Source: an uncultured Thermoleophilia bacterium
GTDB taxonomy: Bacteria > Actinomycetota > Thermoleophilia > Solirubrobacterales > 70-9
Reading direction: 5' to 3'
Assembly: GCA_963715735.1 (NCBI GenBank)
Contig: OY970268.1
Location: forward strand, 2,513,529-2,577,528
Length of the DNA stretch: 64,000 nucleotides
Part shown: positions 3,635 to 63,915 of the stretch, piece by piece
How the letters are laid out: every line of letters starts with the position of its first letter
How positions within the stretch are numbered: position 1 is the first letter of the stretch
Notes under the pieces: model-generated
Seen by the model: the letters and a program-made list of their open reading frames with translations, nothing else
Databases searched by the model: none
What the model was told of the DNA's origin: nothing
Translations under genes and position numbers: made by a program

Positions 3635-4699
3635 ATGGCACCCCGCATCATTTCCATCATCGGGTCCCGCCCCGAGATCGTCCAAGCGGCGCCGCTCTCA
3701 CTGGCATACGCGAGCTGCGTCGAGGAGATCCTCGTCCACACCGGCCAGCACTACGACCCGGGGATGTCAGACCTGCAGATCGCCGACCTGCGGCTACCGC
3801 TGCCGGAGTTCAACCTCGGGGTCGGTTCGCTGCCCCCTGAGGAAGGCGTCGCGGTGGCTCAGGCTCGGATCGCGCAAGTGATCGACCGCAAGAATCCGGA
3901 CGCGGTCCTGGTCCGCGGCGACACCAACGCGACGATCGCCGGCGCGCGCGCCGCGGTAGCCGCCGGGGTGCCGCTGCTCCACGTCGAGGCCGGCCTGCGC
4001 AGCTACCGCGACGACATGCCCGAGGAGGCCAACCGGATCGAGACCGACCGGCTCTCCGACCTGCTCTTCGCTCCCTGCCAGCACGCTCGCGATGTCCTGG
4101 TAAAGGAGCGCGTCCCCGGCGTCGTGCACGTCACCGGCGACGTCCTCGCCGACGTCATGCTGGCGACCCGGAGTCGCCTGCCGGATGCGACCGAGCAGGG
4201 CGAGTACGTCCTCGCCACGGCGCACCGCAACTACAACACCGACTCGCGCGAGCGGCTCGCCGCGGTGCTCGACTGCCTGCGGGCGGCGCAGTGCCGGGTG
4301 ATCTGGCCGCTGCACCCGCGGACCCGCAAGAGCCTCGAGGCGTGGGGCCTGGAGCTGCCTGCCAACGTCGAGGTCCGCGACCCCGTCAACTACACGGAGA
4401 TGCTGGCGCTCGAGCGCGACGCGGTGGCGATCGCGACCGACTCCGGCGGGGTCCAGCGCGAGGCCTACCTCTGGGGCGTCCCCTGCATCACGATGCGCGA
4501 GGAGACCGAGTGGATCGAGACCGTCTCGACCGGTTGGAACACCCTCGTCGGCGTCGACGCCGAGCTCTTCGCGCAGGCGCTGGCGAAGCCGGCTCCGACC
4601 ACCCGGCCGCCGATCTTCGGCGAAGGCCGAGCGGCGGAGCGGATCGCCGAGCTGACCATCTCCCACCTCGATCGCCAACTGGAGGCCTCCGTTGTCTGA
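3635..4699 (+). CDS. UDP-N-acetylglucosamine 2-epimerase (WecB/WbpI-like, non-hydrolysing type)
   Basis: MAPRIISIIGSRPEIVQAAPL, HTGQHYD, GDTNATIAGA.AA, HVEAGLRS, TDSGGVQREA. Start set at ATG 3635. Confidence 0.85.
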   Translation: MAPRIISIIGSRPEIVQAAPLSLAYASCVEEILVHTGQHYDPGMSDLQIADLRLPLPEFNLGVGSLPPEEGVAVAQARIAQVIDRKNPDAVLVRGDTNATIAGARAAVAAGVPLLHVEAGLRSYRDDMPEEANRIETDRLSDLLFAPCQHARDVLVKERVPGVVHVTGDVLADVMLATRSRLPDATEQGEYVLATAHRNYNTDSRERLAAVLDCLRAAQCRVIWPLHPRTRKSLEAWGLELPANVEVRDPVNYTEMLALERDAVAIATDSGGVQREAYLWGVPCITMREETEWIETVSTGWNTLVGVDAELFAQALAKPAPTTRPPIFGEGRAAERIAELTISHLDRQLEASVV

Positions 4700-5750
4700 A
4701 CAACTGCGAGTCGGCGTCATCGGCTGCGGCCGGATGGGCGCCTTCCACATGCGCAACTTCGGCCAGCTCGATTGCGCGAGGCTGGTGGCGGTGGCCGAGC
4801 CTGACGAGACGGCGCGGCGGCGCGCCGTCGGCGAGACCCGGGTCACCGAGTACAGCGACTGGCGCGACCTGATCGAGTTCGGCGTCGAGGAACTCGACGC
4901 GATCTCGATCGCCTGTCCGTCCGAGCAGCACGCCGAGGTCGCGCTGGGAGCGCTCGAGGCCGGCCTGCACGTGCTGGTCGAGAAGCCGATCGCGACGACG
5001 CTTCCGGACGCGCTACGGATGCGCGGCGCGGCCTTCGAAGCGGATCGCAAGTTGATGGTGGGCCATGTCGAGCGCTTCAACCCTGCCGTCGCAAAGCTGC
5101 GTGAGCTGGTCGCTTCCGGGCGCCTGGGCACCGTCTATCGAGCGCATACGACCCGGGTCGGGCCGCTGCCGACGCGGATCCAGGACACGGGGGTGGCAAT
5201 CGACCTAGCCACCCACGACCTCGACGTCATGCAGCACGTGCTCGGCCTCTCGATCCACGAGATCTACGCCGACGGCGGCCGTTTCCAGCACAACTCCCAG
5301 GAGGACCTGCTGACCTGTCTCGCCCGCTTCGGAGAGGAAGGCAAGGGGCAGACCCTGGGCCTGCTCGATGTCAACTGGCTGACCCCCGAGAAGAAGCGCG
5401 AGATCACCCTGATCGGCGAGAACGGGATGCTGCGGGCCAGCTACATCACCCAGGACGTCTGGTTCGTCGAGTCGACGACCGCGCCCCTGCAGTGGGACGG
5501 GCTCTCGATGCTGCGCGGCGACGGCGAGGGGGCGGCGGTGCGCTTCTCGCTGGCCAAGGCGGAGCCGCTGGGAGCCGAGCTCGAAGCCTTCTGCCACTGC
5601 GTCCTCGACGACACCCCGGAGCCGGTCAGCGCCCACGACGGCGTCAAGGCCCTGGCGGCGGCGCTGGCGGTGCGCGAGTCGGCCGCCGTGCGCCGCCCGG
5701 TCGAGCTACTCGACATTCCCGAGCCCCGCCCCCTGGAGGTGCTGGCGTGA
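4692..5750 (+). CDS. Gfo/Idh/MocA-family oxidoreductase (WbpB/WlbA-like sugar 3-dehydrogenase candidate)
   Basis: LRVGVIGCGRMGAFHMRNF Rossmann motif, then VEKPIA and GHVERFNPA. The TTG start overlaps the stop of the epimerase gene. Confidence 0.85.
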   Translation: MSEQLRVGVIGCGRMGAFHMRNFGQLDCARLVAVAEPDETARRRAVGETRVTEYSDWRDLIEFGVEELDAISIACPSEQHAEVALGALEAGLHVLVEKPIATTLPDALRMRGAAFEADRKLMVGHVERFNPAVAKLRELVASGRLGTVYRAHTTRVGPLPTRIQDTGVAIDLATHDLDVMQHVLGLSIHEIYADGGRFQHNSQEDLLTCLARFGEEGKGQTLGLLDVNWLTPEKKREITLIGENGMLRASYITQDVWFVESTTAPLQWDGLSMLRGDGEGAAVRFSLAKAEPLGAELEAFCHCVLDDTPEPVSAHDGVKALAAALAVRESAAVRRPVELLDIPEPRPLEVLA

Positions 5751-6598
5751 TCCGCTTCGTGATCCCGGCCTACAACGAGGCCGAAAACATCCCCCGCCTG
5801 CTCGCCGACCTGGCCCCGGTTGCCCGCGAGCTCGGCGCCCGCGTGATCATCGTCGACGACGGCTCGACCGACGGCACCGGCGAGGTGATCCGCGAACACG
5901 CCCAGGACATGCACCTGGCAGTGGTCACTCACACCGTCAACCGCGGCCTCGGGACGGCGATCAACACCGGCATCCGCTCGGCTTTGAAGGAGTCCTCCGA
6001 CGAGGACGCGATCGTCACCCTCGAGGCCGACACCACCTCCGACCTCTCCGACCTGCCGCGCATGCTGGAGCTGTTCGACCAGGGCACCGACATCGTGCTC
6101 GCCTCGGTCTACGCCCCCGGCGGCGAGATCATCGGGGTCGCCGGCTGGCGGCTGGCGGCGAGCAAATCGGTCTCGAACACCTTCCGCTACCTCGGTGGGC
6201 TGCGCGAGATGCACACGCTCTCCTCCCTGTACCGGGTCTACCGGGCGGGAACGCTGCGCAAGGCCGCCGACACCTACGGCTACCTGCTGGTTCGCGAGCC
6301 CGGGTTCGCCGCCAACGTCGAGCTCCTGCTGAAGCTCTACAACGCCGGCGCCAGCGTCGCCGAGGTGCCGACCACGAACGACTGGACGACGCGCAAAGGC
6401 GTCTCGAAGATGCAGCTGAAACCGACCGTGCTGGCCTACTTCCGGGTGATGACGGCGCATCTGGTGGGCCGCATCCAGCCGCCGCCGGTCTCGCCGCTGG
6501 CCGAGGCGACGGCGCCGCTGGGCGTGCCCGAGCCGGCCGCCGCGACGGTCGCGCCGGGCGGCAACCGGAACGGGCGCGAGTCGGCCGCCCGCGCCTGA
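5747..6598 (+). CDS. GT2 glycosyltransferase, polyprenyl-phosphate sugar synthase type (DPM1/GtrB/ArnC-like)
   Basis: VIRFVIPAYNEAENIPRLL, VIIVDDGSTDGT and TLEADTTSD (DxD-like). It is about 283 aa with no long membrane domain. The GTG start at 5747 overlaps the previous stop. Confidence 0.8.
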   Translation: MIRFVIPAYNEAENIPRLLADLAPVARELGARVIIVDDGSTDGTGEVIREHAQDMHLAVVTHTVNRGLGTAINTGIRSALKESSDEDAIVTLEADTTSDLSDLPRMLELFDQGTDIVLASVYAPGGEIIGVAGWRLAASKSVSNTFRYLGGLREMHTLSSLYRVYRAGTLRKAADTYGYLLVREPGFAANVELLLKLYNAGASVAEVPTTNDWTTRKGVSKMQLKPTVLAYFRVMTAHLVGRIQPPPVSPLAEATAPLGVPEPAAATVAPGGNRNGRESAARA

Positions 6599-7983
6599 TG
6601 GACGCCGCGACCCCCCGGGTGGGGATCGTCGGCGGCGGGGTGCTCGGCACCTCGCTCGCCCTGCGCCTGGCCCAGGCCGGCGCCGCGGTGACCGTGATCG
6701 AGCGCGGACCCAGCCTCGGCGGCCTCGCCGGCACCTTCGACTTCGGCGGCCACGAGGTCGACCGCTTCTACCACGTCATCACCCCCGCCGACCAGCGCAT
6801 GATCGCGATGGCGGAGGAGGTCGGGCTCGGCGACCAGCTGCGCTTCACGCCGGTCGGCGCCGGCTTCTTCGCCGACGGCGAGATGCACGACTTCAACGGG
6901 GTCGCCGACCTGCTGCGGTTCTCACCGCTCGGACCGGTCGCGCGGCTGCGCCTGGGGATGTTCGTCGCCCAGTGCCAGCTGCGCAGCTCCTACGAGAAGC
7001 TGGAGACGATCCCGCTCGAGACCTGGCTGCGGCGGATCTGCGGCAACCAGGTCTGGGAGCGGATCTGGAAGCCGCTGCTGGACACGCGCTTCGACGGCGA
7101 CCCCGCGGGGCTGCCGGCGACTTACCTCTGGGCGCGCACCCGGCGGATGTCGGGCGCCCGCAGCGGCGGCGGCAAGGGCGGCGAGGAAATGGGCCACATC
7201 GTCGGCGGCCACCAGCGCCTGATCGACGCGATGGTCGCCCGCGCCCGTGAGCTCGGGGTCGAGATGCTCACCGACGCCCCGGTCAGCGGCCTCGCGCTCG
7301 ACGAGGCCGGCAACGTCACCGGCGTCGAGTTGGGCGAGCGCAAGCTCGAGTTCGACCTGACGATCCCGACCCTGCAACCGCCCGCCCTGCGCTTCCTCCT
7401 GCCCGAGCGCCACCAAGACCTGCTCGAGCCCTACCCGCAGCGCTGGCTCGGCTGCGTCTGCCCGATCATCAAGGTGCGGCGCTCGCTGCTCCCCTACTAC
7501 GCGATCAACATCGTCGAGCCGACCCCGCTGACCAGCGCGGTCGAGACGACCCAGGTGCTGGGCACCGACCACACCGACGGCCTGCACCTCGTCTACCTGC
7601 CCAAGTACTGCGCCCCGGACGCGCCCGAGCAGAGCGAGGACGACGAGTCCGTCTACCGCCGCTTCACCGACTACCTCGCCCGCCTCTCCCCCGGCTTCAG
7701 CCGCGACGACGTCGTCGACTGGACGGTGCAGCGGGCGAAGCTGGTCGAGCCGGTGCACACGCTGGCGCCCGCGGGCGGGGTCCGGGTCGCGCCGATCTGG
7801 CCTGGCGTCGAGGGGCTGGCGCTGGCCTCCAACGCGCAGATCTACCCCTACCTGCTGAACGGCGACTCGGTGATGGGCTTTGCCGAAACGGTGGCCGCCG
7901 AAGTCGCCGAGCGCCTCGATCTCGCCGCAGCTGCCGGCGAGGGGAGTGCGAGAAAAGGACTAGTTGGATCGTTGACTTCTTAG
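6598..7983 (+). CDS. FAD/NAD(P)-binding oxidoreductase (amine-oxidase/phytoene-desaturase-like fold)
   Basis: N-terminal dinucleotide motif VGIVGGGVLGTSLALRLAQAGAAVTVIERGPSLGGLA. ATGA overlap with the GT2 gene. Confidence 0.7.
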   Translation: MDAATPRVGIVGGGVLGTSLALRLAQAGAAVTVIERGPSLGGLAGTFDFGGHEVDRFYHVITPADQRMIAMAEEVGLGDQLRFTPVGAGFFADGEMHDFNGVADLLRFSPLGPVARLRLGMFVAQCQLRSSYEKLETIPLETWLRRICGNQVWERIWKPLLDTRFDGDPAGLPATYLWARTRRMSGARSGGGKGGEEMGHIVGGHQRLIDAMVARARELGVEMLTDAPVSGLALDEAGNVTGVELGERKLEFDLTIPTLQPPALRFLLPERHQDLLEPYPQRWLGCVCPIIKVRRSLLPYYAINIVEPTPLTSAVETTQVLGTDHTDGLHLVYLPKYCAPDAPEQSEDDESVYRRFTDYLARLSPGFSRDDVVDWTVQRAKLVEPVHTLAPAGGVRVAPIWPGVEGLALASNAQIYPYLLNGDSVMGFAETVAAEVAERLDLAAAAGEGSARKGLVGSLTS

Positions 7984-8023
7984 AGGGTGGGCCGTCCTGG
8001 GCTCGGTCCTCACACCGAGCGCC

Positions 8024-9283
8024 ATGTACCAAGTAGAAGCTTCGAAAGCCCTCCTCAAGCCGCGCCTCTGGGCGCGCCGCTCCGCCCGCCTACGGGTGCC
8101 ACGCAACGTGGTCATGCTCGGCACGGTCAGCCTGCTGACCGACGTCTCCTCGGAGATGGTGGCGACGATCCTGCCGCTCTACCTCGTCTTCTCGCTCGGC
8201 GCCAGCCCGCTGGCACTGGGGGCGATCGACGGCATCTACCGCGGCGCCGCGGCGATCGTCCAGGTCCTCAGCGGCGTCGTCTCCGACCGCTGGCACCGCC
8301 ACAAGGAGGTGGCCGAGAGCGGTTACGGGATCTCCGCCCTGGGCAAGGTCGGGCTGGTGATCGCCGGCAACTCGATTGGCGGAATCGGCGCGATCGTCGC
8401 CTTCGACCGGATCGGCAAGGGAATCCGCACGGCCCCGCGCGACGCCCTGATCTCGCTCTCCAGCACCAAGGCGGGTCTCGCGACCTCGTTCGGCGTGCAC
8501 CGGGCGATGGACAGCTTCGGGGCGATGCTGGGCCCGCTCATCGCCTTCGGGATCCTGCTCGCCGCGCCGGCCCGCTTCGACGCCGTCTTCGTGGTCAGCA
8601 CGCTGTTCGCGCTGCTCGGCCTCGCCGTCCTCTTCCTCGCGGTCGAGGGACGGCCGCGGCGGATGCCCCGCGAGGGCGCGCCGCCCTCGCTTCGAGCCGC
8701 CGCCGGGCTGCTCCGCGACCGCCGCTTCACGCCGCTTTTGATCGCCGCCGCGGGGCTCTCGGTGGCGAGCGTCTCCGACGCCCTGATCTACGTCGGCCTG
8801 CAGGGGAAGATCGAATTCGAGCCCGCCGTCTTCCCGCTGCTCTACGTGATCACCGCGGTCGCCTTCATGGGCTTGGCGATCCCCTTCGGGCAGCTGGCCG
8901 ACCGGGTCGGCCGGATCCGCGTGCTGCTCGGCGGCCAGGCGCTGCTCTTCGTCGTCTACGCGGCCCTGCTCTCCGGCTCGCTCGGGTACGCCGGCCTGAT
9001 CGTCTGCCTGATCGCGCTCGGCGGCTACTTCGCCGCGACCGAAGGCGTGATGACCGCGATCGCCGGCTCGATCCTGCCGGAGGAGCTACAGGCGAGCGGA
9101 ATCGGCATTCTGATCACCGTGATCAGCCTCGGCCGCCTCGTCTCCTCGGTCGCCTTCGGGGCACTCTGGCTGGCCGCCGGCCTGCAGGACGCCGTGCTCG
9201 TCTTCGCCGTCGCCCTGGTTGCGGCGATCGCCGCCGCGGCGGTGCTGCTGAAGCGCTCGCAGGAGAGCGTCGCGCATGGGTAG
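8024..9283 (+). CDS. MFS-type transporter
   Basis: About 12 hydrophobic segments. It has an MFS-like loop motif (SGVVSDRWHRHK) and a second-half repeat (GQLADRVGR). Confidence 0.8.
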   Translation: MYQVEASKALLKPRLWARRSARLRVPRNVVMLGTVSLLTDVSSEMVATILPLYLVFSLGASPLALGAIDGIYRGAAAIVQVLSGVVSDRWHRHKEVAESGYGISALGKVGLVIAGNSIGGIGAIVAFDRIGKGIRTAPRDALISLSSTKAGLATSFGVHRAMDSFGAMLGPLIAFGILLAAPARFDAVFVVSTLFALLGLAVLFLAVEGRPRRMPREGAPPSLRAAAGLLRDRRFTPLLIAAAGLSVASVSDALIYVGLQGKIEFEPAVFPLLYVITAVAFMGLAIPFGQLADRVGRIRVLLGGQALLFVVYAALLSGSLGYAGLIVCLIALGGYFAATEGVMTAIAGSILPEELQASGIGILITVISLGRLVSSVAFGALWLAAGLQDAVLVFAVALVAAIAAAAVLLKRSQESVAHG

Positions 9284-10268
9284 CGGCCGTGCCAAGGCGC
9301 TGGTCGCGCTGGCCGTCGTCTGCGTGCTCGCCGGCGGCGCCTACGTCGCCTTCGCCGCCACCGGGCCGGGCGAGACGACCAGCGACGCCGCGCCGCGGGC
9401 GGGCGAGGTGCTTGCCCGCACGAAGCTGATGGTGCGGGCGGTCGACCCGGACAACCCGCGCCTCAACGGCCGCGTCTACGTGCTCGACGACGGCAAGCTG
9501 CAGCGCTCCCCCGGCGACCTCGGCTGCGAGCGTGTCTACTTCGCCGCCGGGCACGGGATCTGCATGGGGGTGGCGGGCTCGGGGGTCGACTACACGGCGA
9601 CTGTCTTCGACTCCGACCTGCAGCCGGTGCACTCCTTCCCGCTGACCGGGCTGCCCTCGCGCGCCCGGGTCTCAGCCGACGGCCGCTACGGCTCGATGAC
9701 CGTATTCGTCAGCGGCGACGCCTATCTGGAATCCAGCGTCGCCTTCTCGACCCGCACCTATGTGGTCGACATGGAGAGCGGTGAGGTCCTGACGCAGCTC
9801 GAGCAGTTCGATGCGAGCAAGGACGGCGAGTCCTTCGGCGCCCCCGACTTCAACTACTGGGGGATCACCTTCGACCCCAACGACTCCGACCGCTTCTTCG
9901 CCACCCTGGCGACCGGCGAGCACCACTACCTGGTCGAAGGCAGCGTCAGCGGGCGCTCGGTGAAGGTCCTGCGCGACGGGGTCGAGTGCCCCTCACTCTC
10001 CCCCGACGGCACCCGGATCGCCTTCAAGAGCCGGGTCGACAAGGGCGAGAACTGGCGAGTCCGGGTGCTCGACGTGGCGACGCTGGAGGACCACGCGGTG
10101 GCCGAGGACCGCTCGGTCGACGACCAGGTCGAGTGGCTCGACAACGAGACGCTTGCCTACTCCGACGAAATCAACGTCTACACCGTGCCCGCCGACGGCA
10201 GCGGCGAAGAGAAGGTGCTGGTCAAGGACGCGACCTCGCCGGTACGGCTCAGCGAATCGCTGGGCTAG
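9276..10268 (+). CDS. membrane-anchored or secreted beta-propeller protein (TolB/WD40-like repeats)
   Basis: N-terminal hydrophobic anchor (ALVALAVVCVLAGGAYVAFAA). TolB-like repeats are present (SLSPDGTRIAFKS, SADGRYGS). The start overlaps the MFS stop by 8 nt. Confidence 0.6.
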   Translation: MGSGRAKALVALAVVCVLAGGAYVAFAATGPGETTSDAAPRAGEVLARTKLMVRAVDPDNPRLNGRVYVLDDGKLQRSPGDLGCERVYFAAGHGICMGVAGSGVDYTATVFDSDLQPVHSFPLTGLPSRARVSADGRYGSMTVFVSGDAYLESSVAFSTRTYVVDMESGEVLTQLEQFDASKDGESFGAPDFNYWGITFDPNDSDRFFATLATGEHHYLVEGSVSGRSVKVLRDGVECPSLSPDGTRIAFKSRVDKGENWRVRVLDVATLEDHAVAEDRSVDDQVEWLDNETLAYSDEINVYTVPADGSGEEKVLVKDATSPVRLSESLG

Positions 10269-11820
10269 CCGCGGTCTCGTCGAGCAGGGCGAGCATCGCC
10301 TTGCGATCGAACTTGCCGTTGGCATTGAGGGGAAGCTCGGCGATCAGCTCGATCCGCCGCGGCACCATGTACTCGGGCAGGCGCTCGGCGAGCTGTTCCC
10401 GAAGCGCGCGCACGTCGGCCTCTGGGTCGGCCAGAAAGGCGGCGATGCCGCCGGCGCCGCTCTCGGTCAAGGGCCAGCCGACGGCGATCGCGGCGTCGAT
10501 GCCGGAGGCGTCGCGGAGGGCCGCCTCGATCTCCCCGATCTCAACCCTGTGCCCCATCACCTTGATCTGGTGATCGAGGCGACCGAGGTAGACGAGCGGA
10601 TCCTGGGGGCGAGCGGGCCTGCGGACACGGTCGCCGGTCCGGTAGTGGATGCCCTCGGTTCCCGGGGGTTCGACGAAGGCAGCCGCGGTCTTCTCGGCGT
10701 CCTGCCAGTAGCCCGGCGTCACCTGGGGTCCGGAGAGCAGCAGCTCACCGTCTTCGCCGGGTTCGACCTGGCGCAGGCTCTCGTCGACGACGATCGTGCC
10801 AGTGGCCCCCAGCGCCGCTCCGATCGAGACGATGCCGTTGACCTCGTCCTCTCCGTCGAGCTCGGGCCGGACGCGCTGGATCGTGCAGGCGATCGTCGCC
10901 TCGGTCGGACCGTAGAGATTCTCAACCGTCGAAGCGGGCGCGGCGGCGGCCCAGGCCCGGGCCAGCTCCCCCGGCAACGGCTCACCGCAGAACAGGCTCC
11001 AGCGGAGGGCCGGATAGCTGTCGGGCTTCAGCATCCGCAGCTTCCGCATCATCGCTCCCAGCGAGGGCACCGAGAACCAGACCGTCAGCTCGGAGTCGCG
11101 GATGAAGCGGGCGGGCGAGATCAGCTGCGCGGTCGACGGGCAGCAGAGGCAGCCGCCGCATCCCCAGGCCGCGAACATGTCGAAGACGGAGAGATCGAAG
11201 GTGAGGTCGAAGGTCTGCGAGAAGCGATCCTCGGGGCCGAAGTCGTATCGCTTCCGGATCGCATCCAGAAAGGCGACGACGTTCCGCTGGGCGACGCCGA
11301 CGCCCTTCGGCCGGCCGGTGCTGCCGGAGGTGAAGAGCAGGTAGGCGATCGCGTCACCGCCGAGCCTCGGCGGGAGCGGATCGATCGGCTCGAGCCCGGA
11401 GTCGGCGACCGCGTCGGCGGCGATCACCGTCGGCGGATCCGAGAGGCCCTCCAGCAGCTCGGCGACCAGCTCTTCGCGTTCACCGTCGACCACGAGAGTC
11501 CGCGCGCCGGAGCGGAGCAGCATCTCGCGGCAGCGATCGACGGGGAAGCTCGGGTTGAGCGGCACGTAGCCGTTGCCAGCCCATAGAGCGCCGAGGATGC
11601 CGGCGTAGGCCGCCGTGGAGCGCGAGCCGTAGACGGCGGTCAGGGCCGGGTCGCCGTCGGACTGCGCGGCCGCGATCGCGGCGCCGATCCGTGCGGCCCG
11701 CAGCGCCAGCTCGCCGTAGCTGAGACGTTCCGCGGCGACCTCGAGGGCGAGGCCCTCCGGCGTCTCGTCTGCGCAGCGCAGAAAGCCGCTGAGCAGGGTG
11801 GCGCCACTCGGTGCAGTCAT
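10249..11820 (-). CDS. stand-alone adenylation enzyme (ANL superfamily, DltA/NRPS A-domain-like)
   Basis: Core motifs LFTSGSTGRPKGV, FDLTFDLSVFD, NLYGPTE, YRTGDRV, GRLDHQIKVMGHRVEIGEIE and NANGKFDRKA. No fused carrier, condensation or thioesterase domain. Confidence 0.9.
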   Translation of the reverse strand: MTAPSGATLLSGFLRCADETPEGLALEVAAERLSYGELALRAARIGAAIAAAQSDGDPALTAVYGSRSTAAYAGILGALWAGNGYVPLNPSFPVDRCREMLLRSGARTLVVDGEREELVAELLEGLSDPPTVIAADAVADSGLEPIDPLPPRLGGDAIAYLLFTSGSTGRPKGVGVAQRNVVAFLDAIRKRYDFGPEDRFSQTFDLTFDLSVFDMFAAWGCGGCLCCPSTAQLISPARFIRDSELTVWFSVPSLGAMMRKLRMLKPDSYPALRWSLFCGEPLPGELARAWAAAAPASTVENLYGPTEATIACTIQRVRPELDGEDEVNGIVSIGAALGATGTIVVDESLRQVEPGEDGELLLSGPQVTPGYWQDAEKTAAAFVEPPGTEGIHYRTGDRVRRPARPQDPLVYLGRLDHQIKVMGHRVEIGEIEAALRDASGIDAAIAVGWPLTESGAGGIAAFLADPEADVRALREQLAERLPEYMVPRRIELIAELPLNANGKFDRKAMLALLDETAASPAIR

Positions 11821-11947
11821 ACCTCGAAAACGTCAGCGCGGCGCCGATTCTTGCGGGCCGTGCCTGGGGATTCCCGAGCCGGCTGAAAGTACAACGTCTT
11901 CGAGTCGTTGTTTCGGTATGGATACCGGCGCCGAGGCAGGAGCGACT

Positions 11948-12247
11948 ATGGAGTCATCCACCCGCGGCGAGGCCGCCGCGGCGGCGCGGACGAAGATTCT
12001 CGATTTCTGCGGTCCGGCGCTAGCCGCCTACGGTGTCGATCCCGCCGCTGCGACCGACGATCTCGACCTCCGCGCCAGCGGCGCGATCGACTCGCTCGGA
12101 TTCGTCGAGCTGGTGGTGGTGCTGGAGGAAGCGTTCGGGGTCGAGCTGGATCTGGAAGACATCGATCCCGAGGCGCTTACCGTGCTGGGACCGTTCAGCG
12201 GGCACGTCGGTGCTCAGGTCGCAGCGGCGACGGGGCCGGCGGAATGA
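11948..12247 (+). CDS. acyl/peptidyl carrier protein
   Basis: Phosphopantetheine attachment motif GAIDSLGFVELVVVLEEAFG. ATG 11948 is preceded by AGGAGC; ATG 11918 is an alternative start. Confidence 0.75.
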   Translation: MESSTRGEAAAAARTKILDFCGPALAAYGVDPAAATDDLDLRASGAIDSLGFVELVVVLEEAFGVELDLEDIDPEALTVLGPFSGHVGAQVAAATGPAE

Positions 12248-12744
12248 GGTATGAGTCGACCGCGGCCGGAGCGAAGCGCCGAGTGCTGGCGATCTTGGCC
12301 CTCTACGGACCGGGAGCGGAGACGGTCCGGGTTCGTCTCCACCGCCGCCGCGGGGTCAGGATCGGCAGCGGCTGTTTCATCGGCACCGACGTCATCCTCG
12401 AGACCGCGTTCCCTCATCTGATCGAGATCGGCAATCGCGTGGACGTCGGCATGCGAACCACGATGATCGCCCATCAGCAAGGTGAGATCGCCGACGAAAC
12501 CAAGCCTTCGGTGCGAATCGGGGACGACGTCTTCATCGGGCCCGGCTCGATGATCCTGCCGCACGTGACGATCGGGGCCGGCGCCGTGGTCGCCGCGGGC
12601 AGCATCGTCACCACCTCGGTACCGCCGCTGACGATGGTCCGCGGCAATCCCGCTGCGCCGGTGGCGACCTGCAAGGTGCCGCTCGGCCGATCGACTCCCC
12701 TGCGTGAGTTCTACCGCGGCATGCGCCCCGTGCGGGCGAAATGA
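12244..12744 (+). CDS. left-handed beta-helix (hexapeptide-repeat) acyltransferase
   Basis: Hexapeptide repeats (IGSGCFIGTDVIL, IGNRVDVG, IGDDVFIGPGSMILPHVTIGAGAVVAAGSIV) and GNPA. ATGA overlap with the carrier-protein gene. Confidence 0.85.
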   Translation: MRYESTAAGAKRRVLAILALYGPGAETVRVRLHRRRGVRIGSGCFIGTDVILETAFPHLIEIGNRVDVGMRTTMIAHQQGEIADETKPSVRIGDDVFIGPGSMILPHVTIGAGAVVAAGSIVTTSVPPLTMVRGNPAAPVATCKVPLGRSTPLREFYRGMRPVRAK

Positions 12745-13898
12745 AGCGGTTCCTCCGTCGGCCGGAGATCTGGGGACTCGCCGTGGTCGCGGCGATGGTC
12801 GCCTGGATCGCCTGGCCGGATTCCGACAGCGCGGCTCCCGCCGCCCAGACCTCGAAGCAGGTGGGGGGCGCAGCCTGCACCAGGATCGTCGGATCGATCG
12901 AGGCCGCCCGCGATTCCGTCGGAGCTGCCGCTCCCGGCTCGGTCATCTGCCTCCGGGATGGTGAATTCGGAGAGCTCGACCTCAACGCGTCGAAGACCCG
13001 TCCGGGCGTGACTCTGCGTGCCGAGCACCCCGGGAAGGCTTCGCTCGAGGGTCTCTCCATGGATGGGAAGAACCTCACGGTCGCTCGCTTCAAGATCACC
13101 GGCGACATCGAGATCCAACCCGGCTCGACCGCGATGTCGGTCAAGTACAACCGCATCGGTGGCGGCTACTTCGGCATCGACGCCGGCCCGACGACGACGG
13201 TCACGGTGAACGACGTCGCGATCGTCGGCAACAAGTTCGTGGGACCCTTCGGCGAGGACGCGATCCGTCTCAACCGCTACCACGACGCCGACGGCGACGG
13301 GGTCGGCGCCCTGGTCTCCGGCAACGAGTTCACCAACGTTCGCGAGAACGGCAACCACAGCGACTGCCTGCAGACCGTGTGGTACGGCGACCACCTCGTC
13401 TACACCCGCAACTACGTGCACGACAACCGCTGCCAAGGGTTCTTCGTCAAGGACCAGGAGCGCCCGATCGTCGGCATCAGCGTCCTCGACAACCTCTTCC
13501 TACGCAATAACGCCGAGTGCGCACCGGGCGCGTCGGGATGCGGACAGCCCAGCGACTTCCAGGTGTTCGGTCCCTACTCCAAGTTCAAGATGCGCCACAA
13601 CACGATCTGGGGCAACGGCGCGATCGCGGCCTTCCAGGAAGGGACCGGCCCCGGCACGGCGATCCGCGACAACGTCATCTTCAAGTTCTACACCTCGACC
13701 GACCTCGGCTCGGTCCGCTACGAGGACAACACCCGCTGCCAGCGCCAGTCCTCCGAAGGCGGCTCCTGGCCGCGGCGCGCGCCAGGAGAGGTCATCGACT
13801 GCGATCCCGCCTTTCTCGCCCCGGCCGCAGACGACTACCGCCTCGCAAACGAGCGCGGCGTGCGCTGGGCACCGCGCGATCAGCACTACGGCCCCTGA
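12741..13898 (+). CDS. secreted right-handed parallel beta-helix protein (paralog of the C-terminal half of 14145..16403)
   Basis: N-terminal hydrophobic signal/anchor. It shares long motifs with the next gene: DADGDGVG.LV.GNEF, (N/G)H(S/N)D..Q.VW.GDHLV..RNY.HD...QGFFVKDQE and DC.PAF..PAA.DYRLA..RGV.W.P..QHYGP. ATGA overlap with the acyltransferase gene. Confidence 0.7.
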   Translation: MKRFLRRPEIWGLAVVAAMVAWIAWPDSDSAAPAAQTSKQVGGAACTRIVGSIEAARDSVGAAAPGSVICLRDGEFGELDLNASKTRPGVTLRAEHPGKASLEGLSMDGKNLTVARFKITGDIEIQPGSTAMSVKYNRIGGGYFGIDAGPTTTVTVNDVAIVGNKFVGPFGEDAIRLNRYHDADGDGVGALVSGNEFTNVRENGNHSDCLQTVWYGDHLVYTRNYVHDNRCQGFFVKDQERPIVGISVLDNLFLRNNAECAPGASGCGQPSDFQVFGPYSKFKMRHNTIWGNGAIAAFQEGTGPGTAIRDNVIFKFYTSTDLGSVRYEDNTRCQRQSSEGGSWPRRAPGEVIDCDPAFLAPAADDYRLANERGVRWAPRDQHYGP

Positions 13899-13998
13899 GG
13901 TACTCGAACCTCAAAAGGATGAAATTCGGCCATAGCCTGGGTGCAATTCCCGCCTTTTCAAGCCGTTTCCAGTTTTCCGCTCAGGTACGAACCTGAGT
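13898..13998. promoter_or_regulatory. two related palindromes: GAGGTactcgaACCTC (13898-13913) and CTCAGGTacgaACCTGAG (13981-13998)
   Basis: Both contain AGGTAC(T)CGAACCT and lie about 83 bp apart. They sit in a 246-bp lower-GC spacer upstream of the large beta-helix gene. The first could also act as a weak terminator hairpin for 12741..13898. Confidence 0.35.
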
Positions 13999-14061
13999 CT
14001 CCCGACCACGAGCAGTGTGTGTAGGGGGCGTTTCCGCAGTGGCGGTTTGGGTATCGGATAT

Positions 14062-14085
14062 GCGTCCGCCAAGTGGTGGACGCAG
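14062..14085 (+). promoter_or_regulatory. hairpin TGCGTCC-n10-GGACGCA in the putative 5' leader of 14145..16403
   Basis: Perfect 7-bp inverted repeat about 60 nt upstream of the ATG at 14145. Function unknown. Confidence 0.3.
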
Positions 14086-14144
14086 TTCAAGCAAGGGAAC
14101 CGCCGCCCGATGCAGTGGACCTGATGGCGGAAAGGGGGCTGGCA

Positions 14145-16403
14145 ATGCAGTGCACCAACGCACTCAAAATCAAGAGGGTCGCTCGCATGGTGGGTGGCCT
14201 ATCGGCGCTCGTGGCGCTCGCTGCCTGCACCGCAGCGCTCGGCGCTGGACCTGCCGCCGCCCGTGAGGTCGCGCGCAGCGTATGCGTGGTCGGCTTCGGC
14301 GCCGATCTAGGCCACGGCTTCGGCGCCTGGGCCAACCTTGACCGTGACTGCCGGTTCCAGCCCGCACGGGGAGATCGTGCGGTCGCCAAACGGGTCGCCG
14401 TTGGTCCCAAACGCCATCGGCACCGCCGCCGTCCCCCGCGGGCGGTCCAGCAGACGCCACCAGCACCCACTCCTGGTCAGCCGGCGACGAACCCGCCGGT
14501 GACCCCGCCGTCCCATCCTTCGCCCCCCAGCCCGACCGACACCAGCCCGCCCCAGACTTCCCTGAGCGCCGGGCCGAACGGTGCTACTAGCGCGACCTCC
14601 GCGAGTTTCTCGTTCAGTTCGAGCGAGTCCGGCTCGAGCTTCGCCTGCCGCATCGACAGCGGCGGCTGGAGTTCGTGCAGCTCCCCGAAGGGCTACGCCA
14701 GCCTCGCGACCGGCAGCCACCAGTTCTCGGTGCGCGCCACGGACGCGGCGGGGAACACCGATACCTCTCCCGCCACGCGCGGTTGGACGGTCACCTCGAC
14801 GACGACGCCGCCGCCGGCCGACACCACGGCGCCGGAGACCACGATCGCCTCGGGCCCGAGCGGATCCACCGCCGCGACCGCCGCTTCGTTCACCTTCAGC
14901 TCGAGTGAGTCCGGGTCCAACTTCGCCTGCCAGATCGACACCGGCAGCTGGGGCTCGTGCGGCTCGCCAAAGAGCTACTCGGGTCTCGCGGTCGGCGCCC
15001 ATGACTTCTCGGTCCGCGCGACCGACGCGGCCGGTAACACCGACGCCTCGCCGGCGACCCGCAGTTGGACGGTGACCTCAACGCCGCCGCCGGCCGACAC
15101 GACCGCACCGGAGACGACGATCTCCTCCGGACCGAGCGGCTCCACCAGCGCGACTACCGCTTCCTTCGGCTTCGGCTCGAGCGAGTCGGGATCGACCTTC
15201 GACTGCCGCATCGACAGTGGCAGCTGGGGTTCGTGCAGCTCGCCTCAGGGGTACTCCGGGCTCGCGGTCGGCGCCCATGACTTCTCGGTCCGCGCGACCG
15301 ACGCGGCCGGCAACGCCGACGCTTCCCCGGCCACGCGCAGCTGGACCGTGACCGTGACGACGCCGCCGGCGACCGGCTGCGCGTCGACCGTCTCCAGCGT
15401 CACCGCGGCGCAATCGGCGCTCTCCTCGGCCTCGCCGGGGCAGACCGTCTGCCTCGCCGACGGCACCTACGGCAAACTCACGCTGAGCTCCTCGAAGGCG
15501 GCGCCGGGCGTCACCCTGCGCGCGGCCAACCCGGGGAACGCCACCATCGGCAGCGTGCAAGTCTCGGGATCCGGTTACACCATCTCCCGCTTCGTCATCG
15601 ACGGGGGCGTGACCATCGCCCGTAACACCGACCGGACGGTGGTCGACCACAACCGGATCCTCGCCGGCAATCACTACGGCGTGTTCGTCTGCACGGCGAC
15701 TCCGCCGGATCAGTGCGATGACACGAAGATCGTCGGCAACCTGTTCGACGGCGCGATGGAAGAGGATCAGATCCGCGCCAACGTCTTCCACGATGCCGAC
15801 GGCGACGGGGTCGGCCTATTGGTGGAAGGCAACGAGTTCAGGGGCAACACCGAGCGCGGTGGCCACAACGACGTCTTCCAGTCCGTCTGGGTCGGTGACC
15901 ACCTCGTCTTCAACAGGAACTACCTCCATGACTTCGGCGGCCAGGGCTTCTTCGTCAAGGACCAGGAGACCGCGATCAAAGGCTTCATCGCCAACAACAA
16001 CCTGATCGTCGACCAGGACCGCCCCTGCGAACCGTCGACGCTGTGCACCGGCTACCAGCTCTCGCCGTGGCAGATCTACGGGCCGATCTCCGGCGGGGAA
16101 ATGAGGAACAACACGGTCGGCTGGGGTGCCGGGGGCGGCGGCGCGGTGCTGACTGGGAGCTACACGGACATCGACTTCTCGAACAACGTCTTCAACCGCC
16201 TCTCCAGCACCAACGGCGGCGGCAGCGTGCCGACCCTGACCGGCTCGGGCAACACCTATTGCAACTCGAGCGGCTGGGCGGTGCCTGCGGGGACGACCAA
16301 AGATTGCGCGCCGGCGTTCCTCAACCCCGCCGCCGGGGACTACCGACTGGCCAGCGGCCGCGGCGTCACCTGGGTTCCGGCCGAACAGCACTACGGCCCC
16401 TGA
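14145..16403 (+). CDS. large secreted protein: signal peptide, Pro-rich linker, three tandem Ig-like Cys-containing repeats, C-terminal parallel beta-helix domain
   Basis: ATG 14145 is preceded by AAGGGGG. The signal-like segment is MVGGLSALVALAACTAALGAGPAAA. The C-terminal 400 aa are paralogous to 12741..13898. Confidence 0.75.
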   Translation: MQCTNALKIKRVARMVGGLSALVALAACTAALGAGPAAAREVARSVCVVGFGADLGHGFGAWANLDRDCRFQPARGDRAVAKRVAVGPKRHRHRRRPPRAVQQTPPAPTPGQPATNPPVTPPSHPSPPSPTDTSPPQTSLSAGPNGATSATSASFSFSSSESGSSFACRIDSGGWSSCSSPKGYASLATGSHQFSVRATDAAGNTDTSPATRGWTVTSTTTPPPADTTAPETTIASGPSGSTAATAASFTFSSSESGSNFACQIDTGSWGSCGSPKSYSGLAVGAHDFSVRATDAAGNTDASPATRSWTVTSTPPPADTTAPETTISSGPSGSTSATTASFGFGSSESGSTFDCRIDSGSWGSCSSPQGYSGLAVGAHDFSVRATDAAGNADASPATRSWTVTVTTPPATGCASTVSSVTAAQSALSSASPGQTVCLADGTYGKLTLSSSKAAPGVTLRAANPGNATIGSVQVSGSGYTISRFVIDGGVTIARNTDRTVVDHNRILAGNHYGVFVCTATPPDQCDDTKIVGNLFDGAMEEDQIRANVFHDADGDGVGLLVEGNEFRGNTERGGHNDVFQSVWVGDHLVFNRNYLHDFGGQGFFVKDQETAIKGFIANNNLIVDQDRPCEPSTLCTGYQLSPWQIYGPISGGEMRNNTVGWGAGGGGAVLTGSYTDIDFSNNVFNRLSSTNGGGSVPTLTGSGNTYCNSSGWAVPAGTTKDCAPAFLNPAAGDYRLASGRGVTWVPAEQHYGP
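14538..15366 (+). repeat. three in-frame tandem coding repeats (periods 282 and 276 bp, about 92-94 aa)
   Basis: Each unit reads DT(S/T)(P/A)P(Q/E)T..(S/A)(S/G)GP.G.T....ASF.F.SSESGS.F.C.IDSG.W.SC.SP..YS.LA.G.H.FSVRATDAAGN.D.SPATR.WTV. Confidence 0.9.
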
Positions 16404-16418
16404 GGGGCCCGTACGGCC

Positions 16419-17972
16419 TCAAGCAGCCGGAGCGGCGGGCGTCGCCCGCCGCCGCGACTTGAGGAAACCCAGGGGGAGTGATCGCAGCACGACGTCGACC
16501 TGGCTCGGGGCGACCAGCGGCAGCAGCGCCAGGTAGAGCACGGAACCGAGGCCTCCCGCGACCACCGCGCCGATCATGGTGCTGCCGAGCGCCGCTCCGA
16601 TCCCGGCGCCGAGGCCGTAGCAGCCGGCGGCGAGGAGAAGGAAGCGGAGGGCGTCGCGGCCGGTCTCGCGGGCCAGGTGCCCAGCGATCGCGGGGGCTCC
16701 GGTTCGGAGCATCGTCAGCGCGAAGAGAAGCGGCGCGACGAAGGCGGCGCCGACCACCCCGACCGCCCCGAACAGCGCTCCGCCGAGCAGTGAGGCGGCG
16801 ACGTGGACGGCGAGCAGCGCCGGGGTCAGGAGGTTGGTGAACCGAGCCCGCCCGAGCGCGAACATCGCCGGCAGCAGCAGGTTGACCAGCAGCGCGGCGA
16901 CGGTCCAGATCGCCAGCAGCGCCCCGAACTCCTGCAGGATCCGAACGTCGCCGGAGTCGAAGCTCGCGGAGAAGACGACGCCGATGATCGGCGCCCCGGC
17001 GGCGACGAAGGCGGCGAGGGCGGGAGCGCAGATCAGCATCGAGTACCGGAAGCCCTGAGGAACGGTGCCGCCGACGGCTTTGAGCGCGTTGGACCGAGCG
17101 TCCCGGCTCATGTCGGCGATCCGGGACAAACCCAGCGCGAAGGCGGTTCCGGCGACCAGGTAGCTGGCGAACAGGTACGCGTAGGAGAGGACCGTCGCGT
17201 CGCCGGGCGCGTAGGAGGTGGTGAGGGCCAGGGTGACCAGGTAGAGGGCGTTGAAGGCGAGGTAGATGCTGGTGCGGCCGAGGATCAGGCCGGCGTCGGC
17301 GACCAGCAGCCGCAGTCGCAGCGGTCGCGGCGGGGCGGCGGGCCCGGCCGGTTGGCTGCGGCGCACCGCGATCAGCATCAGCGTGCAGGTGACGACGGCC
17401 ATCGCCAGCATCGAGTACCCCAGCGAGAGCGCGCCGGCGCTGCCGGAGCTGACCAGGTAGGTGACGAGGCCGGCGCCGGCGCCGGCGATGTACGCGCCCG
17501 CGACCGCGTCGAAGCGGTCCCGCACCGCGAGCACCGTCGCTCCCCCGGAGGCCCAGAGCTGCAGGATCATGGCGCCGCCGAGGATCGGCAGCGCCTCTTC
17601 GGTGACGCCGCGGCCGGCGTCGCTCAGCCCCGGCGCGAGCGCCAGCGAGAGCGGATGCGCCAACGGGATCGTCAGCACCGCGACGACGAGGGCGATGAAG
17701 ACGAGCGTCGCCCCGAACTCGCGCAGCGGCAGCGCCCGGGTGGGGTGAACCAGCAGCGGCGCCGAGGTGACCCGGATGCTCTGGCTGAAGACCCCGAAGA
17801 CGGTGTAGAGAGAGAAGGCGACGAAGAAGCCGTCGGTGAGCGCGTCGGTGCCGTTGGAGTGAAGGTAGAGAGCCGCCTGGATCGCCGAAGCCACGGCCAT
17901 CGCGAAGGTGGCGACCGCCATCAGCATCCCCGCCCGAGCATGCTTGCTGTGGGTCGCTTTTTCGGTCATCAC
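16419..17972 (-). CDS. MOP-superfamily flippase (MurJ/MviN-like)
   Basis: About 14 hydrophobic segments. The N-terminal pattern GTDALTDGFFVAFSLYTVFGVFSQSIRVTSAPLL resembles the MurJ N-lobe. The GTG/ATG start overlaps the stop of the upstream Wzx-like gene. Confidence 0.65.
   Translation of the reverse strand: MMTEKATHSKHARAGMLMAVATFAMAVASAIQAALYLHSNGTDALTDGFFVAFSLYTVFGVFSQSIRVTSAPLLVHPTRALPLREFGATLVFIALVVAVLTIPLAHPLSLALAPGLSDAGRGVTEEALPILGGAMILQLWASGGATVLAVRDRFDAVAGAYIAGAGAGLVTYLVSSGSAGALSLGYSMLAMAVVTCTLMLIAVRRSQPAGPAAPPRPLRLRLLVADAGLILGRTSIYLAFNALYLVTLALTTSYAPGDATVLSYAYLFASYLVAGTAFALGLSRIADMSRDARSNALKAVGGTVPQGFRYSMLICAPALAAFVAAGAPIIGVVFSASFDSGDVRILQEFGALLAIWTVAALLVNLLLPAMFALGRARFTNLLTPALLAVHVAASLLGGALFGAVGVVGAAFVAPLLFALTMLRTGAPAIAGHLARETGRDALRFLLLAAGCYGLGAGIGAALGSTMIGAVVAGGLGSVLYLALLPLVAPSQVDVVLRSLPLGFLKSRRRATPAAPAA

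Positions 17973-61772: not shown

Positions 61773-63915
<2,143 letters not shown>

Follow-up and report, generated by a model that had tools for sequence, protein, structure and literature searches.

In the AlmEFG system of Vibrio cholerae El Tor, the DltA-like enzyme AlmE loads glycine onto the carrier protein AlmF, and an acyltransferase at the cytoplasmic face, the LpxL-type lipid A acyltransferase AlmG, passes it on to lipid A, which thereby receives glycine or diglycine, without DltB or DltD. AlmEFG is the closest known system to a gene module that we analysed in a stretch of 64,000 nucleotides from an uncultured Thermoleophilia bacterium (contig OY970268.1, positions 2,513,529 to 2,577,528; hereafter, the window). 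The module consists of a stand-alone amino-acid adenylation enzyme, a small carrier protein, and a hexapeptide-repeat acyltransferase of the left-handed β-helix (LbH) type, and is surrounded by a Wzx/Wzy-type polysaccharide locus. In comparison with AlmEFG, in which the acceptor is a hydroxyacyl chain of lipid A, the module has an LbH enzyme in the place of the transferase, and adds a protein with the fold of carbohydrate esterase family 4 (CE4), a MurJ-like flippase, and a polytopic membrane protein, all within the Wzx/Wzy locus of Gram-positive-type soil bacteria. We consider the chances about even that the module is a carrier-protein-dependent aminoacylation system serving the surrounding polysaccharide pathway, with transfer by the LbH enzyme, CE4-like unmasking of the acceptor, and linked export.

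The Dlt system likewise combines a stand-alone ligase of ~510–520 residues with a small carrier and targets a cell-surface polymer, as presumed here, and the pocket equivalents Asp235, Leu236, Leu299, Cys301, and Ala331 (GrsA numbering) are common to DltA and the window enzyme. In contrast to Dlt, the window contains neither DltB, a membrane-bound O-acyltransferase (MBOAT), nor DltD, its ligase and carrier score far under the cut-offs of the DltA and DltC models, and the transfer is proposed to take place in the cytoplasm through the soluble LbH enzyme. A ligase and a dedicated carrier within a polysaccharide gene cluster are found in RfbL/RfbK (WbeL/WbeK) of the V. cholerae O1 O-antigen cluster, in which an AMP-forming ligase and a carrier supply the N-acyl 2,4-dihydroxybutanoate of the amino sugar, so that the principle is not new. 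By their description, RfbL/RfbK are set apart by the hydroxy-acid substrate and by a ligase that groups with acyl-acyl carrier protein (ACP) synthetases and coenzyme A (CoA) ligases, whereas the window enzyme is an amino-acid adenylation domain with the α-amino-binding Asp. VinM and IdnL7, which match the pocket region best and show specificity for small amino acids, differ in that they aminoacylate the amine of an ACP-bound β-amino acid in macrolactam/polyketide gene clusters, and in carrying a Cys/Ala/Thr hallmark where the window enzyme has Leu/Cys/Ala.

Two further pathways are comparable in their chemistry. LpxA and LpxD are LbH acyltransferases that use acyl-carrier-protein thioesters as donors and UDP-sugars as acceptors, and LpxC frees the 2-amine that LpxD then N-acylates. 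The order proposed below, deacetylation followed by N-acylation from a carrier thioester, is the same, but the window LbH enzyme lies outside the LpxA and LpxD families, the deacetylase-like protein has a CE4 fold instead of the LpxC fold, and the donor would be aminoacyl where it is hydroxyacyl in the Lpx pathway. In the Arn pathway, ArnD, an enzyme of the CE4 family, deprotects the amino group of a sugar bound to polyprenyl phosphate at the cytoplasmic face, after which the sugar is flipped and a GT-C enzyme transfers it. Fold searches with the CE4-like protein found ArnD (PDB ID: 8t0j) among other structures, and a flippase and a polytopic membrane protein likewise accompany the module; the Arn pathway differs in having no re-acylation step, and the GT-C nature of the membrane protein here is suggested by a single PMT_2 match (E = 0.013). 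Our literature search, in which subscription journals were thinly covered, found no published description of an amino-acid ligase, a carrier, and an LbH enzyme, with or without a CE4 protein, in a polysaccharide locus. The module likely represents a hitherto undescribed system of envelope modification that is related to Dlt and AlmEFG and belongs to neither. The original prediction, made from the DNA letters of the window, proposed a cytoplasmic route distinct from Dlt and did not recognise the four-gene arrangement as a described system; a carrier route of this kind has a precedent in AlmEFG, which the prediction did not cite, and a second in RfbL/RfbK. The general principle is already established, and what is noteworthy is the partnership of LbH and CE4 proteins and its breadth in soil phyla.

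Adenylation enzyme, carrier protein and predicted substrate

The window has a G+C content of ~70%, and its open reading frames (ORFs) were picked via third-position GC content and then checked against family models; coordinates are collected in Table 1. The adenylation enzyme passes the NCBIfam model TIGR01733 'amino acid adenylation domain' (331.3 bits; cut-off, 317.4) and contains the core motifs A3–A10 (FTSGSTGRPKG, NLYGPTE, YRTGDRV, and NANGKFDRK). Alignment to solved structures places the equivalent of GrsA D235 at D209, in the second FD of FDLTFDLSVFD, and the terminal Lys at K503. Both models of DltA fail on the enzyme (TIGR01734, 262.6 bits against 559.85; NF003417, 268.3 against 476), and the models of fatty-acyl and CoA ligases give 90–146 bits. 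Among structures in the PDB, the closest relatives are residues 1232–1713 of LgrA (6mfy; E = 2.4e-95), VinM (8k4r; 1.5e-87), IdnL7 (6akd; 1.2e-85), which uses Gly, L-Ala, and L-Ser, AlmE (4oxi; 1.6e-68), which uses glycine for lipid A, and several DltA structures, specific to D-alanine (~1e-54 to 1e-56). The matching region of LgrA is, as we read it, module 2, with glycine as its substrate in linear gramicidin.

Three other identities were considered for the enzyme and rejected. A fatty-acyl ligase does not agree with the score above the TIGR01733 cut-off, the conserved α-amino Asp, and the 90–146 bits of the fatty-acyl and CoA-ligase models; a variant of Dlt was discarded with the DltA and DltC models under their cut-offs and no DltB or DltD; and a fragment of a nonribosomal peptide synthetase (NRPS) was discarded with no condensation or thioesterase domain and with the genes conserved as stand-alone units.

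The substrate pocket was read from residue-level alignments of the pocket segment with the anchors FDxS, LPPT, GSA/GGE, and NxYGPTE. At positions 235, 236, 239, 278, 299, 301, 322, 330, 331, and 517 of GrsA numbering, the window enzyme has DLFFLCLIAK, as compared with DLHLFCLIAK in AlmE, DLMTLCTVAK in Bacillus cereus DltA, and DCFFLALITK in IdnL7. Thus, seven of the ten pocket residues of AlmE are shared, including Leu236, Cys301, Leu322, Ile330, and Ala331. In AlmE, Leu248 and Cys316, which correspond to positions 236 and 301, adjoin the Cα atom of the substrate and have both been tied to glycine selectivity by mutagenesis, while their equivalents in DltA, Leu198 and Cys269, touch the D-methyl group of D-Ala; the hallmark residues of VinM-type enzymes are Cys236, Ala301, and Thr331 (PMC11253843). 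At these three positions, the window enzyme carries the Leu/Cys/Ala set of AlmE and DltA; at position 322, it resembles AlmE (Leu) and not DltA (Thr). Because of the Leu-Cys-Ala set and the AlmE-like Leu322, the predicted substrate is probably a small amino acid of which glycine is the most likely and D-alanine the second. Of 143 homologues, which come from several phyla, 125 share this code exactly, and one substrate is therefore probably used across the whole family.

The more distant homologues of Streptomyces, Nonomuraea, Planomonospora, and other actinomycetes (L025–L060) are also stand-alone adenylation enzymes, with 42–45% identity and the pocket DLFFLCLISK. Their loci encode additional adenylation enzymes as well as carrier proteins and lack an LbH gene, as is the case throughout the Streptomyces and related actinomycete homologues (identity, ≤45%). 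They probably represent secondary-metabolite clusters using the same small amino acid.

The carrier protein has its predicted phosphopantetheine site at Ser49, in AIDSLGFVEL, and is a generic PP-binding protein that gives only 23.6 bits with the DltC model NF003464 (cut-off, 68). A Shine-Dalgarno sequence, AGGAG, precedes its ATG codon by 6 nucleotides. The carrier and adenylation genes are divergently transcribed, and both promoters presumably lie inside the intergenic region of 127 bp. The carrier gene overlaps the LbH gene by ATGA at 12244–12247, and the LbH gene in turn overlaps the gene of a right-handed β-helix protein by ATGA at 12741–12744. These results bear out the original prediction in its description of the genes, that is, a 523-residue adenylation enzyme with a full motif set, the FD aspartate (D209), and the terminal lysine (K503), a divergent carrier gene with a serine motif, and ATGA chaining from the carrier through the LbH enzyme to the β-helix protein. 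The outcome that it had named as refuting, a grouping of the A domain with fatty-acyl-AMP ligases or acetyl-CoA synthetases, did not occur: TIGR01733 and the solved relatives, which are NRPS A domains, VinM, IdnL7, AlmE, and DltA, place the enzyme in the amino-acid-activating class.

Conservation of the module and its partner genes

Gene neighbourhoods were scanned with one genome per GTDB species, and the 79 loci returned were compared by tblastn and family hidden Markov models (HMMs); loci and contigs are referred to by L and P numbers, respectively. The carrier gene is located beside the adenylation gene in all of nine close Thermoleophilia/Solirubrobacterales metagenome-assembled genomes (adenylation enzymes, 68–92% identical), and the LbH gene is present in all nine as well. 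In a cross-phylum set of 14 informative loci from Terriglobia, Acidoferrales, Geomonas, Phycisphaeraceae, Myxococcota, and other Actinobacteria, with adenylation enzymes 48–55% identical, an orthologous carrier gene directly follows the adenylation gene in 13, and an LbH orthologue (>200 bits) is found within the available flanks in seven; carrier orthologues score 70–122 bits with the family HMM. An LbH orthologue also accompanies the adenylation–carrier pair in L080, L081, and the P0104 contig, and in L081 the genes of the adenylation enzyme, the carrier, the LbH enzyme, and a 534-residue protein without Pfam match are all joined by 4-bp overlaps. Sampling from the side of the LbH enzyme gave the adenylation–carrier–LbH set in all four contigs, with a CE4-like gene next in three, and sampling from the CE4-like protein placed its gene directly after the LbH gene or after the membrane-protein gene in three of three cases. 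The ATGA overlap between the carrier and LbH genes is kept in L080–L084, L087, and metagenome contigs. In every sampled genome, covering two phyla, the module lies amid glycosyltransferases, Wzx/Wzy/MurJ-type flippases, a priming sugar transferase, and nucleotide-sugar enzymes. The conserved unit, extending from Actinobacteria to Acidobacteria, is the adenylation enzyme, the carrier, and the LbH enzyme, and the arrangement is more than chance because it recurs in different phyla. The four-gene unit originally predicted, with the β-helix protein as its last member, is thereby reduced to three genes, which are conserved in Wzx/Wzy-type loci, while the β-helix gene follows the LbH gene only in the closest relatives. 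Neither are the four genes a complete set, since the conserved CE4-fold protein, membrane protein, and MurJ-like flippase lie outside them, and the earlier interpretation as a whole is partly supported.

The CE4-fold protein has no transmembrane (TM) segment and no signal peptide. Its AlphaFold2 (AF2) model, calculated with 42 homologues (pLDDT, 87; pTM, 0.89), consists of an N-terminal flavodoxin/GATase-like domain, a central domain with the CE4 (NodB) deacetylase fold, and a C-terminal β-sandwich. In Foldseek searches of the PDB, the N-terminal domain matched class I glutamine amidotransferase-like folds, and the central domain matched CE4 deacetylases with probabilities of 0.97–1.0, the target-normalised TM-scores being only 0.35–0.56; the matches include a putative polysaccharide deacetylase of Mycobacterium smegmatis (3rxz), SpPgdA (2c1i), 5lgc, Bc1960 (4l1g), chitin deacetylases, and ArnD. 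Eight residues are invariant in the family (D188, D189, H247, H251, R318, P319, H358, and H385), of which D188–D189, H247/H251 (His-x3-His), and R318–P319 fit the CE4 motifs 1–3. A search of the PDB with the family profile gave no match. The assignment to CE4, taken from the predicted fold with the catalytic motifs present, is tentative. The family is large, with 1072 homologues in a word-index search, all 'hypothetical' where named, and 2368 clusters at 50% identity in an exhaustive search; the window protein is 45% identical to those of L081 and L080. The CE4-like gene directly follows the LbH gene in L081, L082, L084, L087, L007, L008, L013, and L015, of which L013 and L015 are acidobacterial loci, and in L018 a canonical Polysacc_deac_1 gene is located behind the carrier gene.

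The polytopic membrane protein matched nothing in Pfam (E up to 10), NCBIfam, or the PDB (by sequence and by a four-sequence profile), and one orthologue (L008) showed PMT_2 at the above E-value with 16 bits. Residues D60 and E64, following TM1, are invariant. The protein is possibly a GT-C-type transferase, which is a guess from these sequence features. Its gene forms an operon with the CE4-like gene, with a 4-bp overlap in L085 and L086; it is located upstream of the carrier–LbH–CE4 genes in L007, L008, and L087, and, in the sampling from the CE4-like side, orthologues of 613–618 residues are encoded directly upstream of the CE4-like gene where the LbH gene is not. The MurJ-like protein is a second flippase besides the Wzx of the locus, and its orthologues carry a precomputed Pfam MurJ assignment. 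The full operon, which runs from the MurJ-like gene through the membrane-protein, carrier, and LbH genes to the CE4-like gene and is divergent from the adenylation gene, is found in L087, L007, L008, and the P0294 contig. In the window, the carrier–LbH pair has apparently been relocated to the side of the adenylation gene, which left the membrane-protein and CE4-like genes adjacent to each other and 10 kb away.

Extended modules occur in Acidobacteria and some Actinobacteria (L009, L010, L012, L013, L015, L017, L018, and L019), with extra genes that are absent from the window. Their gene order is adenylation enzyme, carrier, a 336-residue double-GNAT/NMT-like protein, an FkbH-domain protein, a second carrier, the LbH orthologue, and the CE4-like protein; in L015, for example, genes of this series are at 9860–10852, 12058–13791, 13601–14059, 14011–14559, and 14484–16385. 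The double-GNAT/NMT-like gene directly follows the adenylation–carrier pair in all eight of these loci, comprising acidobacterial and two further actinobacterial ones, among which L009, L010, and L018 have no LbH orthologue within the available flanks and L012, L013, L015, L017, and L019 have one. The FkbH-domain protein, present in many of the extended loci, scores 211 bits with TIGR01686 (cut-off, 147), and the second small carrier, located after it, has the serine motif WDSLA and a reading frame that overlaps the start of the LbH orthologue in L012 and L015. This composition suggests that the extended modules lead to composite acyl-aminoacyl substituents.

Proposed mechanism and competing explanations

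The named families nearest to the LbH enzyme, all with scores under their cut-offs, are the maltose/galactoside, WcaF, and YvoF O-acetyltransferase types, with heptaprenylglyceryl-phosphate O-acetyltransferase as the top NCBIfam match (77 bits; cut-off, 300). The LpxA and LpxD models fail (NF003657, 37.7 bits against 226; NF002060, 36.5 against 207), and the PDB matches are CoA-dependent acetyltransferases at E-values of 1e-10 to 1e-15 and LpxA at ~6e-6. His77, in the sequence AHQ, aligns with the SHS active-site loop of 3ect and is a candidate catalytic residue. Within the window, the enzyme is the sole acyltransferase candidate linked to the module; a second LbH protein, encoded 25 kb away, belongs to the NeuD/PglB/VioB family of sugar N-acetyltransferases. 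As the original prediction had stated for the condensation, thioesterase, MBOAT, and DltD domains, a Pfam scan of ~60 window ORFs detected none of these, and no FemAB or GNAT domain either. A tblastn search of the window returned nothing for the FkbH, FemAB, or GNAT/NMT-like proteins encoded in related loci, and a second carrier was likewise absent. MBOAT and DltD are also missing from the precomputed Pfam lists of related contigs, a domain of the lipid A acyltransferase type from every window ORF and the gene lists of related contigs, and a condensation domain or a releasing thioesterase or reductase from the window and the module neighbourhood of related loci.

Based on the computed domain identities, pocket residues, CE4 fold, and gene linkage, we infer a substrate, a donor for the LbH enzyme, an acceptor, and roles for the membrane proteins, as follows. 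The adenylation enzyme would activate a small amino acid (glycine, or else D-alanine) with ATP and thioesterify it to the phosphopantetheine group on Ser49 of the carrier. The LbH enzyme, the gene of which shows translational coupling with that of the carrier, would then use the aminoacyl-S-carrier instead of an acyl-CoA to aminoacylate a sugar on the cytoplasmic side. An amino sugar linked to a nucleotide or to polyprenyl would most likely be N-deacetylated by the CE4-fold protein, and its amine would thereby become available for N-aminoacylation. Export of the product and its attachment would fall to the MurJ-like flippase and the polytopic membrane protein. Stated in full, this becomes a six-gene pathway, widespread in soil Thermoleophilia and extended in Acidobacteria, that swaps N-acetyl for N-glycyl (or N-D-alanyl) on a lipid- or nucleotide-linked amino sugar in the cytoplasm, in which the CE4-fold deacetylase frees the amine, the LbH enzyme uses the aminoacyl-S-carrier, and the MurJ-like flippase and a GT-C-like membrane protein export and graft the product to give a cationic surface glycan; we put this complete version forward tentatively, as a possibility with rather low odds of being right in all its parts.

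The use of an aminoacyl-carrier thioester by the LbH enzyme, which the original prediction had also proposed, is suggested only by gene linkage. We know of no member of the LbH superfamily with an aminoacyl-S-carrier donor. A switch from an acyl-CoA to an acyl-carrier donor is plausible, because both carry the phosphopantetheine arm. In the acidobacterial loci, the LbH orthologue is located directly behind the second, FkbH-associated carrier; members of this LbH family are therefore encoded behind a carrier with either kind of loader, which argues for a carrier-bound donor.

It is possible, though on balance doubtful, that the LbH enzyme is instead an ordinary acetyl-CoA-dependent sugar O- or N-acetyltransferase, and that the thioester is used by the CE4-fold protein, the membrane protein or, in other phyla, the GNAT/NMT-like protein. 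Its closest named and solved relatives are indeed CoA-dependent acetyltransferases, the double-GNAT/NMT-like gene stands directly behind the adenylation–carrier pair in the eight extended loci, L084 and the P0104 contig have FemAB-family genes in the vicinity of the module, and the LbH orthologue is missing within the flanks of half of the cross-phylum loci (7/14). Set against these points, the window and its close relatives retain the adenylation enzyme and the carrier with no GNAT/NMT-like or FemAB gene, the overlap of the carrier stop with the LbH start is kept over large evolutionary distances, and the occurrence of the LbH orthologue also behind an FkbH-type carrier is hard to explain if acetyl-CoA suffices. 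An action of the adenylation enzyme in the manner of VinM and IdnL7, by which the amino acid would be joined to the amine of a carrier-tethered or sugar-borne substrate and the carrier would hold the acceptor and not the donor, appears improbable. VinM and IdnL7 are among the best full-length matches as well as the best over the pocket region, and five of the ten pocket positions (239, 278, 299, 322, and 330), besides Asp235 and Lys517, are identical to those of IdnL7; yet the hallmark Cys236/Ala301/Thr331 is replaced by Leu/Cys/Ala, as in AlmE and DltA, and a second loading enzyme that could supply the carrier with an amine-bearing acyl group is missing from the minimal module. We also regard it as unlikely that the module makes or modifies something else, such as an aminoacylated lipid, a lipid anchor, or a small metabolite, and shares only its location with the polysaccharide genes. 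The best NCBIfam match of the LbH enzyme is lipid-directed, albeit far under its cut-off, the target of AlmEFG is lipid A and not a glycan chain, and the Streptomyces adenylation homologues with nearly the same pocket are encoded in loci with further adenylation enzymes and without an LbH gene; against this, the module is embedded in polysaccharide gene sets in every sampled genome of the two phyla.

Several observations weigh against the aminoacylation of a polysaccharide precursor through the LbH enzyme, which we nevertheless prefer. By sequence, the LbH enzyme groups with acetyl-CoA-dependent O- and N-acetyltransferases (YvoF, maltose/galactoside acetyltransferases, and DapH); the adenylation–carrier pairs of the seven cross-phylum loci mentioned above have no LbH orthologue within the available flanks; and where the double-GNAT/NMT-like protein is present, it could be the true aminoacyl transferase. 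The CE4-fold protein matches neither Pfam, including Polysacc_deac_1, nor NCBIfam, and the alignment of its family to the canonical CE4 protein of L018 by hhalign is insignificant (E = 0.22; FLLDDPN aligned with LTFDDGT), so that it could be an esterase, a deformylase, or inactive. In the window, moreover, the CE4-like and membrane-protein genes are 10 kb from the LbH gene, and the choice between glycine and D-alanine depends on few pocket positions.

Surrounding polysaccharide locus and implications

Pfam and NCBIfam scans of the window ORFs identified, around the module, the genes of a Wzx/Wzy-type polysaccharide locus, encoding a priming sugar transferase, a UDP-GlcNAc 2-epimerase, two GFO-type 3-dehydrogenase-like enzymes, a DegT aminotransferase, an LbH N-acetyltransferase of the NeuD/PglB/VioB family, several GT2 and GT4 glycosyltransferases, Wzx, Wzy, and the MurJ-like flippase. 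The two GFO-type enzymes (UDP-GlcNAc 3-dehydrogenase-like), the epimerase, the aminotransferase, and the NeuD/PglB/VioB-family protein together resemble the WbpB/E/D/I-type set for 2,3-diamino-2,3-dideoxy sugars. A 3-amino sugar from such a WbpB/WbpE/WbpD/WbpI-like set would be an alternative acceptor with a free 3-amine, for which the deacetylase would not be needed.

Table 1. Features of the window, with positions counted from its first nucleotide
Feature	Position	Strand	Basis
WbpB/E/D/I-like sugar gene set	1720–2997; 3620–5750; 35382–~36450; 37288–37815 (NeuD/PglB/VioB-family LbH)	−; +; −; +	Resemblance of gene set
Conserved block (GT2, amine-oxidase-like, MFS, PD40)	5492–10268	+	
Stand-alone amino-acid adenylation enzyme (carrier-protein ligase), 523 aa	10249–11820	−	Pfam AMP-binding, 1e-66, and AMP-binding_C
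Divergent adenylation/carrier intergenic region, 127 bp	11821–11947	.	Read from sequence
Carrier protein, 99 aa	11948–12247	+	Pfam PP-binding, 31 bits (cut-off, 20.8)
Hexapeptide-repeat (LbH) acyltransferase, 166 aa	12244–12744	+	Hexapep, 1.3e-13, 50.4 bits (cut-off, 27)
Right-handed β-helix protein, 385 aa	12741–13898	+	Beta_helix, 29.5 bits (cut-off, 25.9)
Paralogous β-helix protein, 776 aa, three Ig-like (Big_13) repeats	14073–16403	+	Pfam Big_13
MurJ-like (MOP family) flippase, 517 aa, ~10 TM	16419–17972	−	TIGR01695 murJ, 41 bits, under cut-off
'Wzx' ORF, 869 aa	17969–20578	−	
Conserved gene antisense to 'Wzx' ORF	19469–20632	+	No Pfam match
Cytoplasmic CE4-fold protein, 533 aa	23228–24829	−	AF2 and Foldseek; family without Pfam/NCBIfam match
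Polytopic membrane protein, 616 aa, at least 8 TM and C-terminal soluble domain	24834–26684	−	Hydropathy profile
Giant protein, 2160 aa	26733–33215	−	DMFA2_C, seven PKD, and four Laminin_G_3 domains
dnaB helicase gene and AAA+ ATPase gene (247 aa)	60282–62515	+	IstB/DnaA-type ATPase

The 385-residue β-helix protein has a basic and then hydrophobic N-terminus (MKRFLRRPEIWGLAVVAAMVAWIAW), which fits export or membrane anchoring. Its gene is translationally coupled to the LbH gene in the window and directly follows the LbH gene only in L001 and L020; paralogues occur at scattered places in loci of Solirubrobacterales, and the acidobacterial modules have none. It is a lineage-specific exported neighbour, outside the core module and its chemistry. 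The protein is possibly a glycan lyase, a hydrolase, or another glycan-processing enzyme; a sequence search of the PDB gave only a weak match to a mannuronate lyase (E = 0.066), and an AF2 model from the two window paralogues was unusable (pLDDT, 38). In the 776-residue paralogue, the C-terminal 347 residues are 44% identical to the 385-residue protein, and Beta_helix and Chondroitinase_B are under their cut-offs. Multiple exported paralogues per locus are present in the window, L002, L003, L007, L008, and L065, with up to four in L008; they have a conserved C-terminal motif, ...DYRL..GRGV.W.P..QHYGP, and weak similarity to PL6-type lyases, and may be clade-specific glycan depolymerases or modifying enzymes.

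Other neighbouring genes were noted. The conserved block upstream of the module encodes a small GT2, a flavin adenine dinucleotide (FAD) amine-oxidase-like protein, an MFS transporter, and a PD40 β-propeller protein, and travels with the module in L001, L020, L081, and L087; the amine-oxidase-like protein scores 359 bits with the NCBIfam model PRK07233 'hypothetical protein' (cut-off, 252). The conserved gene that is antisense to the first ~330 codons of the 'Wzx' ORF encodes a product 67% identical to that of a called 321-residue gene in L085; therefore, the real Wzx has ~520 residues, and an unannotated gene is located between Wzx and Wzy. The giant protein adjoins the membrane-protein/CE4-like pair, with its position kept in L085 and L086 and one such protein encoded near the module in the P0104 contig, and may be a surface protein tied to the glycan. 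At the far end of the window, the dnaB gene is followed with a stop/start overlap by the gene of an AAA+ ATPase, which could be a DnaC-like helicase loader or a remnant of IS21.

Aminoacylation of surface polymers alters adhesion, surface charge, and resistance to cationic antimicrobial peptides, the known cases being teichoic acids (Dlt) and lipid A (AlmEFG). The gene linkage described here points to a third route, in which an LbH transferase fold and a CE4-like partner act on a Wzx/Wzy polysaccharide of abundant and poorly studied soil bacteria. If true, the proposal would extend the donor range of LbH enzymes to aminoacyl-carrier thioesters and would assign a role to an unannotated family of ~2400 protein clusters. 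N-aminoacyl amino sugars are known chemically in bacterial glycans, and their biosynthesis is, to our knowledge, mostly unassigned; the module would provide a genetic basis for them.

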